Part shown: positions 59,294 to 63,574 of the stretch, in pieces
Layout of the letters: each line of letters begins with the position of its first letter
Position numbering within the stretch: the first letter of the stretch is position 1
NCBI RefSeq assembly: GCF_988243305.1
Contig: NZ_OZ547136.1
Reading direction: 5' to 3' (one strand)
Length of the DNA: 64,000 nt
The notes under the pieces: model-generated
Databases searched by the model: none
What the model saw: the letters and a program-made list of their open reading frames with translations, nothing else
What the model was told of the DNA's origin: nothing
Made by a program: the position numbers and the translations under genes

Positions 59294-59326
59294 CCGTGAC
59301 GAAACGGCTCAAAGGCGAGGTATAAA

Positions 59327-59445
59327 ATGAGTTTTTTTGATGAGTTGAAAACCTCTCTGGAAGAGGCTGTTGAGATTAGAAAGAACCTGCACGGGTGACC
59401 CACTACGAAATTGCGGATGCTAAGGCTATTCGTGAGCAACTTCAT
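59327..59445 (+). pseudogene. Frameshifted, 3'-truncated remnant of a HigA/XRE-type antitoxin gene
   Basis: ATG 59327 (RBS GAGG) gives MSFFDELKTSLEEAVEIRKNLHG* (stop 59396-59398). The +1 frame from 59395 continues VTHYEIADAKAIREQLH, the usual segment just before the HTH in this antitoxin family. No HTH follows. Confidence 0.6.
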
Positions 59446-59735
59446 ACTCCAACTGACCGGTTGCGTAGCCAGAATGCAATCAAATCTGACAGTCTGCTTC
59501 GGCGCGCGCTTTGGTGTATTTACCGGAGTAAATCAGCGTGCCGTGGAAAATTATGCGCAGCGCTTCTGCTGATTTGCGTACCTTCGCTGATGATAAGTCC
59601 TGCACTAGCGCGCTGCGCGTAATAGTCCGCCATCATGTCAATCGCAACGTCACCCGCACCGGCGCGGGAACGCGTCATCGGTGGCAGTACAAAACGGTTT
59701 ATTAATGGCAACGCATTCAGCGCATATTTAGCAAA
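59446..59735 (-). pseudogene. Old Yellow Enzyme (NemA-like NADH:flavin oxidoreductase) pseudogene: N-terminal ~55 codons fused out of frame to a C-terminal fragment, with most of the gene deleted
   Basis: Minus strand: [56 protein letters not shown] matches the OYE N-terminus (compare NemA ...NRIFMAPLTRLRS...[23 protein letters not shown]). A shifted frame then reads ALRIIFHGTLIYSGKYTKARAEADCQI* / DLIAF, matching the NemA C-terminal region [21 protein letters not shown]...IDAVAFG. There is no start codon, and a stop lies at 59736-59738. Confidence 0.75.
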
Positions 59736-59759
59736 TTACGTAATGGGTCCCTTGCGCGG

Positions 59760-59972
59760 TTATTTGTACAGTTCGGCACTCATGGTGACGGTATTGCCCA
59801 TGCGAGCGCTGGTGATTTTGTATTCAGAGGCGTTCATCTCTTTCGCTTTCTGCGCAATAACTGCTTCCGCAGAATCCAGTGTTGTACCGGTTGCTGTCAC
59901 GCTTTGCGCCGATGCGTTAAACGCCGCGACAGAGAAAAGAGAAGCTGTAAAAATTGCGATGATCGTTTTCAT
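59760..59972 (-). CDS. DUF1471 (YdgH/BhsA/McbA-family) small periplasmic protein, 70 aa
   Basis: MKTIIAIFTASLFSVAAFNASAQSVTATGTTLDSAEAVIAQKAKEMNASEYKITSARMGNTVTMSAELYK has a signal peptide plus the single DUF1471 domain pattern. The track ORF has a 56-codon upstream extension. Confidence 0.8.
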   Translation of the reverse strand: MKTIIAIFTASLFSVAAFNASAQSVTATGTTLDSAEAVIAQKAKEMNASEYKITSARMGNTVTMSAELYK

Positions 59973-60129
59973 GTTTATATTCCAGAGTGTCTTAATTGTT
60001 TGGCGTTTATTAACGCGATGGGGAGAGAATACGCCTGCTGCCTGATAACATAAATGATACAAATGACAATAGACTATTCTGCTTTTGTTAATAATCAGAC
60101 GCCGGACGTTCCGACGCCTGTCGATTGCA

Positions 60130-60546
60130 TCAGGCAACAAAGTTGTCCTTCAGCGCCTTGAGACCATCCCGATAGATGCCGGTAAACAGCGCTTCGGCCT
60201 CTTCGTTCGTCACATTCACCGGGGTGAATTCACCGAACCATTCCACACGGGAAACCTGGCTGTCGGCGGTTTCATGAACGGTAATGGTGGAGAGGTAATC
60301 CACCACCGGGAACGGTGCCTGAATAATGGAATAGGTATAACTGCGTTGACGGTTATCAAACGCTTCCAGACGTTCAACCACAGTGCCGCCGTCAGAGGTT
60401 GTCAGCGAACGAACGCGACCGCCTTCTGTCACTACGCTTTTCGGGATGAACGGCAGCCAGTCTGGCAGCGCATCAAAGCCGCCCATCAATTGCCATACGG
60501 TGTCGGCAGAAGCCGGAATTTCGATCGATACAGTTGTTTTAGCCAT
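60130..60546 (-). CDS. SRPBCC (polyketide cyclase/dehydrase-like, Bet v1 fold) protein, 138 aa
   Basis: MAKTTVSIEIPASADTVWQLMGGFDALPDWLP...YTYSII...VEWFGEF is the typical Polyketide_cyc2 pattern. It starts 25 nt after the SDR stop. Confidence 0.75.
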   Translation of the reverse strand: MAKTTVSIEIPASADTVWQLMGGFDALPDWLPFIPKSVVTEGGRVRSLTTSDGGTVVERLEAFDNRQRSYTYSIIQAPFPVVDYLSTITVHETADSQVSRVEWFGEFTPVNVTNEEAEALFTGIYRDGLKALKDNFVA

Positions 60547-60571
60547 GATAATTTTCTCTTAATTTATAGGG

Positions 60572-61388: not shown

Positions 61389-62399
61389 TTAACGGGTCGG
61401 CAGCGGAGCGTTTTCCGCAACCAGATTTTGACGGCGCATTTCTGCCCAGAATTCAGCCGGAACAGGCGCATTCAGTGCAGCCAGATCTTCTGCCATACGG
61501 CCAGGACGGCTGGAGCCAGGAATAACCGCTGCAACGGCCGGGTTTGCCAGCGCGAACTGCAGCGCAGCTGCTTTAACGTTCACATTGAAACGTGTGGCAA
61601 TGGCGTTAATTTGCGCCACTTTCTGCTGGATGGCCGCAGAAGCTTTCTGATATTCAAAGTGCTCGCCGCCTGCCAGTACGCCAGAGCTGTACGGACCGCC
61701 CACAACAATATCCACGTTCTGTTCCAGTGCTTCTGGCATCAGGCGTTGCAGCGCACGTTCGTGATCCAGCAGGGAATAACGCCCCGCCAGCAGGAACGCA
61801 TCCGGCTTCGGTTCGTCCAGCGCCAGCGTCAGTTCGCAAGGTTCGACGCGATTCACACCCAGTCCCCAGGCTTTAATCACACCTTCGTCACGCAAACGCG
61901 TCAGCGCACGAAACGCACCGGTACGGGCTATGTTGAACTGTTCCAGCCAGCTGTCACCGTAGAAGTCCTGCGCCGGGTCGTGGATCCAGACAATATCCAG
62001 ACGATCTGTTTTCAGGCGTTTCAGGCTGTCTTCAATCGAGCGCAGCGTGGCGTCAGCAGAGTAGTCATTCAGAATTTTGTTTTTCAGGCCGTGTTCGAAC
62101 AGGCCACCTTTTTCACCGAAATCACGTTTTGCCGGATCTTCCATTTCGTCCAGCATGATGCGGCCGACTTTGCTGCTCAGAACGTATTCATCACGTGGAT
62201 ACTGAGACAGCGCTTCACCCATGCGGATTTCAGAAAGGCCAGAGCCGTACAGCGGCGCGGTATCAAAGTAACGCACGCCCAGGTTCCAGGCTTCGCTCAC
62301 GGTGGCGTGGGCCTCTTCTTCCGGAATGGCACGGAACATGTTGCCGAGTGGTGCGCCGCCTAAGCCAATTTTGCCGGGAAGTAAATTTTTGATGCTCAT
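61389..62399 (-). CDS. Aldo-keto reductase (aldose/pyridoxal dehydrogenase-like clade), 336 aa
   Basis: AKR catalytic tetrad contexts YFDTAPLYG (D, Y), SSKVG (K) and WIHDP (H). Confidence 0.85.
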   Translation of the reverse strand: MSIKNLLPGKIGLGGAPLGNMFRAIPEEEAHATVSEAWNLGVRYFDTAPLYGSGLSEIRMGEALSQYPRDEYVLSSKVGRIMLDEMEDPAKRDFGEKGGLFEHGLKNKILNDYSADATLRSIEDSLKRLKTDRLDIVWIHDPAQDFYGDSWLEQFNIARTGAFRALTRLRDEGVIKAWGLGVNRVEPCELTLALDEPKPDAFLLAGRYSLLDHERALQRLMPEALEQNVDIVVGGPYSSGVLAGGEHFEYQKASAAIQQKVAQINAIATRFNVNVKAAALQFALANPAVAAVIPGSSRPGRMAEDLAALNAPVPAEFWAEMRRQNLVAENAPLPTR

Positions 62400-62451
62400 A
62401 AGATGTCCTCAATTATTCGGTTTGGGTTAGGGCGTTTTTTTGCTATCGCCC

Positions 62452-62467
62452 TGTGACGTGGATCACA
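62452..62467. promoter_or_regulatory. CRP consensus-core site TGTGA-N6-TCACA in the divergent AKR/LysR promoter region
   Basis: tgtgacgtggatcaca was read directly. Its centre is about 60 bp from the AKR ATG and about 73 bp from the LysR ATG. Confidence 0.55.
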
Positions 62468-62532
62468 ATACCTTGCGAGGTTGTGACTTGATAGGACATA
62501 ATTCGTCTGACTTAAGTCCTTTGAGGTCTAAC

Positions 62533-63420
62533 ATGATTGATTTACGCCAACTGAAGTACTTCGTGGTGGTCGCAGAAGAAGAGCACGTGGGACGCGCAGC
62601 CGAGCGATTACATATCTCGCAATCACCGCTGAGCCGCCAGATTGCACAACTGGAAGAACGACTGGGGCTGACGCTGTTTGAGCGTAATCAGCAGCGCATT
62701 CGCCTGACCGCTGATGGACAGACATTCCTTGCCGAAACACGTTCGTTGCTGACACACGCCAACCGCCTGGAGTCGTTAGGCAAACGCCTGGGACGGGGGG
62801 AAGATGGGGGCTTGTGTATTGGCTATATCGAAAACGCCATGCATTCCGGTGTACTTTCTACGGCGCTACGTACGTTACGTGTATCGCGTCCGAATGTGCA
62901 TATCGCTCTTTACAGCCAACCACCGGCTACCCAGATTGAAGGCCTGCGCCAGCGCAGTCTCGATTTTTCTCTGGTCGATACGCCGCCCACCGACAGCGAG
63001 CAGGATCTTGAATATATTCAGGTTCTGGATGATCGAATGTTGTTGGCCTTACCGCAAAATCATCCTCTGGCGCAGGAGGAAAACCTTGTCGCGTCACAAC
63101 TTGGCGATGAGCAGTGGATTGCGGTGATTCATAACGACGATGCGCATTTTCGCGATCATTTTGTCGCCGCCTGTGTTAACGCCGGGTTTAATCCTGATAT
63201 TCGCCTGGAAGCGGGTGAACCCCTCACGGCATTAGGTTTGGTCGCTGCGGGATTAGGTCTGGCCTTAATTCAACATAGTCTGCGTCATAATGCGCCGGAA
63301 GGGGTGGTATTACGTGAATTGCCGTGGATGAATTATTCAACGCAATTATGGGCAGCCTGGCATAAAGCCAACCAACGTCCGCTGGTTTCCCATTTCCGCC
63401 AGATTTTGCGCGGTGAATAA
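62533..63420 (+). CDS. LysR-type transcriptional regulator, 295 aa
   Basis: MIDLRQLKYFVVVAEEEHVGRAAERLHISQSPLSRQIAQLEERLGLTLFERNQQR is a canonical LysR HTH. RBS TGAGGT. Divergent from the AKR operon. Confidence 0.88.
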   Translation: MIDLRQLKYFVVVAEEEHVGRAAERLHISQSPLSRQIAQLEERLGLTLFERNQQRIRLTADGQTFLAETRSLLTHANRLESLGKRLGRGEDGGLCIGYIENAMHSGVLSTALRTLRVSRPNVHIALYSQPPATQIEGLRQRSLDFSLVDTPPTDSEQDLEYIQVLDDRMLLALPQNHPLAQEENLVASQLGDEQWIAVIHNDDAHFRDHFVAACVNAGFNPDIRLEAGEPLTALGLVAAGLGLALIQHSLRHNAPEGVVLRELPWMNYSTQLWAAWHKANQRPLVSHFRQILRGE

Positions 63421-63426
63421 AACGTT

Positions 63427-63458
63427 AAGCGGGAACCATGAGTTCCCGCTTGATTTGA
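63427..63458 (+). terminator. Terminator-like hairpin after the LysR gene (AAGCGGGAAC-catga-GTTCCCGCTT, then tgatttg)
   Basis: Perfect 10-bp stem beginning 7 nt after the stop. Confidence 0.7.
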
Positions 63459-63574
63459 GATGTCAGTCCGCATCTGAGCTAATACGCTTAAAGAAAATTC
63501 TGGCTTTTCCGGGGACTAATCATTTAACTAATACCGGATGCGATGCTGGCGCGCCGCACCCGGCATTTTACGCA

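Follow-up and report, generated by a model that had tools for sequence, protein, structure and literature searches.

Why does the interval between nadR and ettA, a spacer of 307 nt in Escherichia coli K-12, measure 4281 bases in a 64,000-nt stretch of contig NZ_OZ547136.1 (RefSeq assembly GCF_988243305.1), and what do the genes that fill it do? In this stretch, hereafter the window, serB, radA and nadR (58040-59293, plus strand) are followed by a segment encoding a LysR-type transcriptional regulator (LTTR), an aldo-keto reductase (AKR), a short-chain dehydrogenase/reductase (SDR), a SRPBCC (Bet v1-fold) protein, a DUF1471 protein and gene remnants, and then by ettA (from 63575, minus strand). 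The explanation that we favor, and to which we give an even chance overall, is an acquired, self-contained regulon in which LysR controls an AKR-SDR-SRPBCC operon for the detoxification of carbonyls or electrophiles.

Proteins were assigned from open reading frames (ORFs) and Pfam domains, and NCBIfam equivalog models with their cutoffs were used for subfamilies. An earlier reading of the window sequence (the original prediction) had described a LysR gene divergent from a tightly packed oxidoreductase operon, with intergenic gaps of 19 nt (AKR-SDR) and 25 nt (SDR-SRPBCC) and a relic of an Old Yellow Enzyme (OYE). The ORF layout bears out the divergent arrangement, and all of its gene calls, both gaps and the relic agree with the ORF and Pfam results.

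Conservation of the cassette across bacterial phyla

One genome per species was scanned with a SRPBCC alignment, which retrieved at least 578 relatives, and the best 80 loci were analyzed. The AKR gene lies directly upstream of the SRPBCC gene in 72 of the 80, a count of SRPBCC genes immediately 3' of AKR or of AKR-SDR, and the pair occurs in Enterobacterales, Pseudomonas, Burkholderiales, Stenotrophomonas, Rhizobiales, Actinomycetota, Bacillota and Bacteroidota. A divergent LysR gene is present in 54 loci, in Proteobacteria and Actinomycetota only; an SDR gene is found between AKR and SRPBCC in 28 (all Enterobacterales and Pseudomonas; Acinetobacter too, outside the 80), and a DUF1471 gene in five, in Enterobacterales only. 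The SRPBCC protein, which the original prediction had regarded as the least predictable component, is on the contrary the most constant partner of the AKR. Linkage of the AKR/SDR/SRPBCC triad in other genera, also anticipated there, was recovered as linkage, but the triad is not the conserved unit: the comparison shows that the ancestral cross-phylum core consists of LysR, AKR and SRPBCC with a conserved operator. The SDR was added in gammaproteobacteria, and SDR, OYE and DUF1471 are lineage-specific add-ons.

Outside Enterobacterales the identity to the E. coli proteins is 67-78% for AKR (in Pseudomonas, Streptomyces, Bacillus and Flavobacterium), 60-75% for LysR and 59-68% for SRPBCC, and the LysR proteins divergent from AKR share 60-99% identity over the 54 loci. 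Positions conserved in at least 97% of sequences make up 44% of AKR, 40% of LysR and 30% of SRPBCC (42 of 138 residues). Judged from these alignments, the cross-phylum identities of the three proteins are unusually high for accessory genes. All-against-all ORF clustering of the 80 loci returned LysR, AKR, SDR and SRPBCC together with lineage-specific synteny (e.g. a Pseudomonas two-component system), and no additional conserved neighbors.

The arrangement LysR<>AKR-SDR-SRPBCC-DUF1471 was found at differing chromosomal sites in Citrobacter, E. ruysiae, Klebsiella and Yersinia. It adjoins crl/frsA/gpt in Klebsiella pneumoniae, yicC/rph/pyrE in Yersinia frederiksenii and pitA/yhiN/uspB/uspA, not nadR, in E. 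ruysiae; in Citrobacter farmeri GNAT/GntR genes flank it on one side and an EamA-type gene, followed by fimbrial genes, on the other. Ewingella carries the cassette without DUF1471 on a 331-kb plasmid. Mobility is thus evident from the same block at five or more chromosomal contexts and on plasmids across lineages, with a patchy distribution within E. coli. The strongest argument that one functional cassette was spread horizontally is that the regulator and operator were transferred together with the enzymes. The original prediction had treated the DUF1471 gene as separate; it does stand apart, 157 nt from SRPBCC, but it is not a separate gene, since it accompanies the cassette in Enterobacterales (downstream of the SRPBCC gene in Citrobacter, Klebsiella, Yersinia, Raoultella and E. 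ruysiae).

The ratio of nonsynonymous to synonymous substitution rates (dN/dS) is 0.02-0.12 over all five genes (0.02-0.05 for LysR, 0.02-0.06 for DUF1471), indicating strong purifying selection. Given this value, the gene order and operator that many genera and phyla have preserved at different sites, and retention of the island in 482 E. coli genomes, it is scarcely credible that the segment is decaying junk DNA or that its genes came together by chance, without a coherent function, at a hypervariable intergenic site. Points in favor of that view are the three-state polymorphism of the site, the two pseudogene relics in the island and the probably damaging SDR mutation in the window. Chance juxtaposition, which the original prediction had kept in view, is contradicted by the conserved linkage elsewhere.

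Some variants of the arrangement were also observed. Several Bacillota (Paenibacillus, Sporosarcina, Peribacillus) have two or three tandem or nearby AKR-SRPBCC pairs. Copies in Bacillota and Bacteroidota have no adjacent regulator and are preceded by a gene-free region of 300-650 nt; no Rfam element was found upstream of these AKR genes. At four Actinomycetota loci an SDR 48% identical to that of the island is encoded a few kb from the SRPBCC gene, which suggests that the SDR association is looser outside the gammaproteobacteria. Three Pseudomonas loci have SDR-SRPBCC with no AKR or LysR detected, and may be partial cassette deletions.

The divergent control region

LysR matches PF00126 (85.7 bits) and PF03466 (134.8 bits), each above cutoff, and its gene is divergent from an operon with which it shares an intergenic region containing a dyad operator, as is typical of LTTRs. 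A consensus scan predicts a lysR promoter on the plus strand (-35 TTGCGA, 62473-62478; -10 CATAAT, 62497-62502). The predicted AKR promoter on the minus strand (-35 TATCAA, 62493-62488; 17 nt; -10 TATTGT, 62470-62465) was derived from the -35/17 nt/-10 spacing conserved across genera. The predicted LTTR operator block (62481-62532) contains GAC/GTC dyads, including the palindrome GACTTAAGTC at 62509-62518.

This dyad block is conserved in more than 50 loci of Proteobacteria and Actinobacteria, and about 50 nt 5' of lysR are conserved among E. coli, Pseudomonas, Acinetobacter and Streptomyces. The operator consensus reads AGACCTC...GGACT.AAGT....GTC(C/T)T..(G/C)A..GTC, followed by a 17-nt spacer and a TAnnnT hexamer. 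The dyads overlap the predicted lysR -10/+1 and abut the predicted AKR -35, the usual LTTR layout for autorepression of the regulator and activation of the target.

The AKR leader also contains a perfect CRP-core palindrome (Table 1), which overlaps the predicted AKR -10 and +1. The pattern TGTGA-N6-TCACA occurs twice in the window, where 0.04 matches would be expected, the only other perfect one being at 10680-10695. In Escherichia, Citrobacter, Klebsiella, Raoultella, Enterobacter, Trabulsiella and Yersinia the half-sites are invariant and the N6 is variable; the site is absent from Serratia, Pseudomonas, Acinetobacter and Streptomyces.

An Enterobacterales-specific hairpin is present in the same leader (GGGCG-loop(AGCAaAA)-CGCCC, 62420-62451, minus strand). 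Its changes between genera are partly compensatory (GGGCGAC/GTCGCCC, GGGAT/ATCCC, GGGCA/TGCCC), and it has no Rfam match. The leaders of Klebsiella, Raoultella and Yersinia have a second hairpin, TTCCC...GGGAA.

Protein families and possible activities

The AKR belongs to its superfamily by a PF00248 match of 153.5 bits over residues 10-322 (cutoff 24), and the catalytic Asp-Tyr-Lys-His tetrad (D46/Y51/K77/H140) is invariant in 83 aligned sequences. It falls outside the YdjG NADH-dependent methylglyoxal reductases (NF049922, 71.4 bits against a cutoff of 550). Its nearest solved relatives are plant L-galactose dehydrogenases (E = 2e-29), and JGI and some NCBI/UniRef records name its homologues D-threo-aldose 1-dehydrogenase.

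These relatives and automated names, together with the perfect CRP core site conserved in Enterobacterales, recommend the main rival to detoxification, an oxidative aldose or lactol dehydrogenase under catabolite control. In such a catabolic or salvage module, the AKR would work oxidatively as a 1-dehydrogenase of the D-threo-aldose, L-galactose or L-fucose type, or else as a pyridoxal-like lactol dehydrogenase; its product would pass to the SDR, and expression would depend on the LysR inducer and cAMP-CRP. We regard it as rather unlikely. No transporter, lactonase, dehydratase, kinase or aldolase was found in or adjoining the cassette in about 90 loci, and the island has no linked sugar-pathway genes; the L-galactose and D-threo-aldose 1-dehydrogenases, although the best PDB matches, are only distantly similar to the AKR. 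The CRP-like site covers the predicted -10/+1, a position that would usually be repressing, and the Acinetobacter orthologue responds to loss of glutathione (see below).

The SDR matches PF00106 and PF13561 above their cutoffs and has YGVTK at 154-158 with SSES upstream and an NNLG motif. It is 82% identical to the Acinetobacter SDR of PDB 8g9m, and the SDR of PDB 3t4x is likewise related. The DUF1471 protein is a single-domain member of PF07338 (41.9 bits, cutoff 27), and its N-terminus, MKTIIAIFTASLFSVAAFNASA, looks like a signal peptide. It scores under the cutoffs of the BhsA, RclB and YhcN equivalogs, though it belongs to the family of these periplasmic stress proteins.

The SRPBCC protein belongs to the helix-grip family Polyketide_cyc2 (PF10604, 107.6 bits). 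It is 62% identical to Bacillus cereus XoxI (PDB 3cnw), on which its AlphaFold2 model (mean predicted local distance difference test score 81) superposes with a template modeling score (TM-score) of 0.91. After the orthologues, the next structural neighbors are uncharacterized YPO0625 of Y. pestis (7tmu), the plant PYR/PYL/RCAR abscisic-acid receptors (TM-score ~0.8, 23-27% identity) and onion lachrymatory factor synthase (LFS; 19-20% identity).

This resemblance raises the possibility, which we judge distinctly unlikely, that the SRPBCC protein is a PYR/PYL-like ligand receptor that modulates AKR or LysR once a hydrophobic signal or toxin is bound, the cassette being a device for sensing or modifying a signal and not a plain detoxification in two steps. 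The nearly invariant AKR-SRPBCC adjacency across phyla and the 42 strongly conserved residues would fit such a role, as would the fact that the closest solved non-orthologous folds after YPO0625 are the receptors and LFS. PYL proteins have a gate motif, SGLPA, and a latch motif, HRL; at the corresponding places the SRPBCC protein reads TSDGG and PFPV, which sets it outside the PYL group. The same fold also serves enzymes such as LFS and polyketide cyclases. No gene for a PP2C phosphatase was found near the cassette, no evidence of interaction was found, and the 150 best representatives include no fusion of SRPBCC with AKR or SDR, only tandem SRPBCC duplications. Shared features are the Polyketide_cyc2 helix-grip subgroup and, by sequence inspection, an ERLE-x-D core motif; the differences are the identity of about 19-27% and a genomic partner that is an AKR, not PP2C.

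The Pfam name Polyketide_cyc2 also invites a secondary-metabolite tailoring set (a polyketide cyclase with ketoreductases), and a weak match to the Rv0910 toxin model (E = 3e-4) at an island located in a toxin-antitoxin locus invites an anti-phage defense or toxin-antitoxin element. Both are very improbable. No polyketide synthase, nonribosomal peptide synthetase or acyl carrier protein genes lie near any locus. The Rv0910 match spans 33 residues and, at 20.8 bits, lies below the cutoff of 100. The relE/nadS genes were the site disrupted and do not belong to the cassette, whose proteins give no PADLOC match; a defense or toxin role was rejected on this lack of a PADLOC match and the negligible toxin match. 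The original prediction had placed the module in carbonyl, quinone, electrophile or aldose metabolism rather than in defense. Its non-defense part holds, and the electrophile option fits the Acinetobacter data given below; between carbonyl and aldose we can only infer.

The Xanthomonas "polyketide cyclase" XAC1230, considered as a relative, is a different, 388-aa secreted SRPBCC-GyrI protein and was set aside. A literature search for "XoxI" by name returned only an author name. A 2026 review of bacterial START/SRPBCC proteins gives no sign of an AKR-linked family, and a term search did not find the word "reductase" in its text.

Expression data and the proposed function

Among the members of the family, ABUW_1479-1482 of Acinetobacter baumannii AB5075 is the only one for which expression data were found. 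In a gshA mutant, which lacks glutathione, all four genes are up-regulated with log2 values of 1.5-2.4, namely 1.5 for the LysR gene ABUW_1479, 2.0 for the AKR gene ABUW_1480, 2.4 for the SDR gene ABUW_1481 and 2.3 for the SRPBCC gene ABUW_1482 (PMC12914303). According to the authors, ABUW_1480-1481 rise under zinc stress too (PMC12914303). The induction in the gshA mutant fits, without proving, an inducible NAD(P)H-dependent defense against reactive carbonyls or electrophiles. The associated genes point in the same direction, namely the NemA-like OYE and the DUF1471 family, which includes BhsA, YhcN and RclB.

The Acinetobacter genes are orthologous to those of the island, with the same order, a divergent LysR gene and a nearly identical operator. 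In A. nosocomialis the locus reads gltS / LysR / AKR / SDR / SRPBCC / KefB-like antiporter, with csu pili genes further on, and identities to the window are 76% for LysR, 85% for AKR, 82% for SDR and 57% for SRPBCC; here also the operator is nearly identical. ABUW_1479-1482 differs from the island in having no DUF1471 or OYE gene, in being flanked by gltS and a KefB-like antiporter, and in its location in a core chromosome region near csu instead of an islet. It is likewise uncharacterized, and a literature search under older annotation names found nothing on this operon.

The antiporter directly 3' of the Acinetobacter SRPBCC gene is KefB/KefC-like (Na_H_Exchanger and TrkA_N domains), an adjacency that is perhaps coincidental. 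In E. coli, KefB and KefC belong to a glutathione-gated K+ efflux family used against electrophiles.

In the mechanism that we propose, LysR would bind the GAC/GTC dyads overlapping its own promoter and the AKR -35 and, on sensing a small reactive molecule, would activate the operon. The AKR, with its intact tetrad, and the SDR would then reduce a carbonyl of the dicarbonyl, enal/enone or quinone type with NAD(P)H, and the PYL/LFS-like Bet v1 protein would bind the hydrophobic substrate or isomerize it to a form acceptable to the AKR. The net role would be a glutathione-independent detoxification of electrophiles or carbonyls, which in Enterobacterales would be linked to carbon status through the CRP-like site located at the transcription start. 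The functional part of this scheme, inducible protection, driven by NAD(P)H and independent of glutathione, from a reactive carbonyl or electrophile, is advanced tentatively, at somewhat below an even chance.

Several points weigh against detoxification. For no member of the family is a substrate, inducer or phenotype on record. Both the gshA and the zinc results stem from a single RNA-seq study, made in another genus, and could reflect indirect effects. Because of the L-galactose dehydrogenase relatives and the D-threo-aldose names, lactol or aldose oxidation is equally compatible with the AKR fold, and the score of the YdjG methylglyoxal reductase model is far under its cutoff (71 against 550 bits). 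The promoters, operator and CRP binding are sequence-based predictions, and the CRP-like site could represent catabolite control of a catabolic function. No AKR-SRPBCC fusion that would prove a physical partnership turned up among the 150 representatives. Finally, the Firmicutes and Bacteroidetes copies are without the LysR gene, and therefore the regulation is not universal.

A more far-reaching reading, in our opinion unlikely, is that LysR, AKR and SRPBCC with their operator form an unrecognized, exceptionally conserved two-protein enzyme system, exchanged among phyla and responsive to thiol depletion, in which the Bet v1 protein is an obligate partner of the reductase. SRPBCC would then act as an isomerase, a substrate chaperone or a ligand-gated modulator and, if true, this reading would establish a new route, independent of glutathione, for dealing with one specific reactive metabolite of wide occurrence.

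Comparison with known systems

E. coli has the NemR-nemA-gloA and YqhC-yqhD-dkgA detoxification systems, and its AKRs YdjG, YghZ and DkgA reduce methylglyoxal. By analogy with these inducible systems, in which a dedicated regulator turns on NAD(P)H-dependent reductases (OYE, AKR, alcohol dehydrogenase) that clear reactive carbonyls or electrophiles without glutathione, the cassette may work alike. It differs from them in having a LysR instead of a TetR or AraC regulator and an SRPBCC partner, which those operons lack, and its AKR lies outside the equivalogs of those E. coli AKRs.

Pairs of Bet v1/PR10 proteins and AKRs are known in plants, where neopinone isomerase or thebaine synthase acts with codeinone reductase, and bacterial morphine dehydrogenase (an AKR) and morphinone reductase (an OYE) act on a common enone scaffold. 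In the plant pairs the Bet v1-fold protein readies or isomerizes the enone and the AKR reduces it, which may serve, as an analogy only, as a mechanistic precedent for SRPBCC-AKR(-OYE). Unlike the island, these systems act on alkaloid substrates, and the relation is at the superfamily level only.

The closest structural relatives of the SRPBCC protein are B. cereus XoxI and B. thuringiensis Q6HG14 (3f08), with 60-62% identity and a TM-score of 0.9. In the B. cereus-group genomes scanned (B. dicomae, B. paranthracis, B. thuringiensis, B. luti and B. tropicus) the SRPBCC gene is directly 3' of the orthologous AKR gene (73-74% identical); unlike the island, these loci have no adjacent LysR gene and no SDR gene between AKR and SRPBCC. 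PDB entries 3cnw, 3f08 and 3t4x are structural-genomics entries without an assigned function.

As an E. coli islet the segment is ordinary accessory DNA, and hundreds of genomes already have it annotated by RefSeq with generic names. Its moderate interest lies in being a module conserved across phyla: in organisms as far apart as enterics, Streptomyces, Bacillus and Flavobacterium, a regulator, an operator, an AKR and a Bet v1-like protein have stayed linked, with 60-78% identity. The function of the conserved pair is directly testable, because the cassette is small, self-regulated and present in E. coli, Klebsiella, Acinetobacter and Pseudomonas; an answer could reveal a further detoxification route that needs no glutathione and bears on how pathogens survive stress.

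Distribution in E. coli, origin and insertion into nadS

Among 5426 complete E. coli genomes, 482 (~9%) have the island, in each case as a single chromosomal copy 98.3-99.9% identical to that of the window, and genomes without it show the nadS-type match only. By strain name, carriers include Shiga toxin-producing O145:H28 strains, porcine enterotoxigenic strains, human isolates with extended-spectrum beta-lactamases and environmental strains.

The segment common to other genera (59497-63451) has 97.7% DNA identity to the E. ruysiae locus and 88% to the Citrobacter farmeri locus, and homology to the E. ruysiae copy stops at 63451, the end of the hairpin after lysR. G+C content is 0.56-0.60 across the SDR and AKR genes against ~0.50 in the flanks. 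The analysis shows an accessory islet of about 4 kb, devoid of mobility genes and taken up by horizontal transfer from a source resembling Citrobacter or E. ruysiae. No integrase, insertion sequence (IS) or flanking repeat was found at the island ends, and no tRNA or Rfam RNA element within the segment; the original prediction had likewise seen no integrase, IS, flanking repeat or transporter, and this proved correct. The E. ruysiae locus has 38-40 short matches per E. coli genome and therefore holds a dispersed repeat.

In C. farmeri and E. ruysiae the DUF1471 gene is followed by an intact gene for a 365-aa NemA-like OYE, which adjoins the cassette as an intact gene only in Citrobacter and E. 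ruysiae. The relic in E. coli, assigned to the N-ethylmaleimide reductase subfamily of NCBIfam, has an ATG>ACG start, TTA>TAA at codon 2, a 686-nt internal deletion and a 3' truncation. What remains is ~48 N-terminal codons and 71 nt of the 3' part, short of a full-length Oxidored_FMN domain, which shows that the OYE gene neighboring the cassette decayed in E. coli after acquisition.

Alignment with K-12, proposed with the original prediction, placed both junctions inside nadS. K-12 lacks the island genes, as the original prediction had it, and the segment is an insertion relative to it; the K-12 spacer is short, as also stated, but not empty, since it carries the orphan antitoxin gene nadS, encoding a 56-aa NadS-family protein. 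Other strains have at this site a relE/parE toxin gene and a 94-aa helix-turn-helix (HTH) protein, NadS. Homology to nadS stops at about 59441 and restarts at about 63488, so that 4046 nt of island-specific DNA (59442-63487) take the place of ~116 nt in the middle of the gene. The window retains the first ~115 nt, with a frameshift and a 9-nt deletion, as well as the last ~45 nt and the downstream spacer that resembles a repetitive extragenic palindrome (REP). The 5' remnant corresponds to a RefSeq NadS pseudogene in the near-identical strain C4. The relE deletion junction is identical in K-12 and the window, and nadS was already an orphan in the lineage that received the islet. The alignments thus show insertion within an orphan antitoxin gene whose partner relE toxin gene had been lost earlier. 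The 55-nt and 36-nt junction fillers had no match among the loci compared.

The nadR-ettA spacer of E. coli is accordingly a three-state polymorphism, comprising relE/parE with the 94-aa nadS, nadS alone, and the island in nadS. In the K-12 nadS, homology to the full-length gene stops inside the gene and is followed by a REP-like element.

Features of the segment

Table 1. Features between nadR and ettA; coordinates are those of the window.
Feature	Coordinates	Strand	Basis
nadS 5' remnant, HTH antitoxin-like gene	59327-59441	+	89-93% to K-12 and 94-aa nadS
Left junction filler, 55 nt	59442-59496		No nadS allele or related locus matches
OYE (NemA-like) relic	59497-59741	-	Oxidored_FMN on 63-aa ORF; alignment to intact genes
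DUF1471 (YdgH/BhsA/McbA family) small secreted protein, 70 aa	59760-59972	-	PF07338
SRPBCC/Bet v1-fold protein, "XoxI"-like, 138 aa	60130-60546	-	Polyketide_cyc2
Classical SDR oxidoreductase, 265 aa (RefSeq start)	60572-61369	-	adh_short, adh_short_C2
AKR, 336 aa, operon gene 1	61389-62399	-	Aldo_ket_red
Divergent control region, 133 nt	62400-62532		Predicted promoters and conserved LTTR operator block
Perfect CRP-core palindrome TGTGA-N6-TCACA, TGTGACGTGGATCACA	62452-62467		Predicted; AKR leader
LTTR, 295 aa	62533-63420	+	HTH_1 and LysR_substrate
G+C-rich hairpin, 11-bp stem, 3' of lysR	63427-63451		Terminator-like scan
Right junction filler, 36 nt	63452-63487		Related loci give no match
nadS 3' remnant and REP-like palindrome preceding ettA stop codon	63488-63574	+	95% to 94-aa nadS 3' end and downstream spacer of relE/nadS strains

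Allele differences in the window

The same genes are annotated by RefSeq in strain C4, which is 99.9% identical. Comparison of the window with C4 over 7.7 kb revealed twelve differences, only three of which are within the island (60126, 61312 and 63149), all C>T or G>A. The difference at 60126 is intergenic, and that at 63149 changes a variable position of LysR (S206F). The third, at 61312, gives G20R in the SDR (codon AGG, 61310-61312) and replaces the last glycine of the TGxxxGxG motif. Among 43 homologues compared, the window reads GSTSGIR and the 42 others, including C4, read GSTxGIG; the glycine motif is thus present in the gene generally and broken in the window allele. From its place in the motif, G20R probably abolishes cofactor binding, and the SDR of the window may therefore be inactive. 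The remaining nine differences cluster in 276 bp at the serB-radA boundary (56381-56656), which suggests a small recombination patch.

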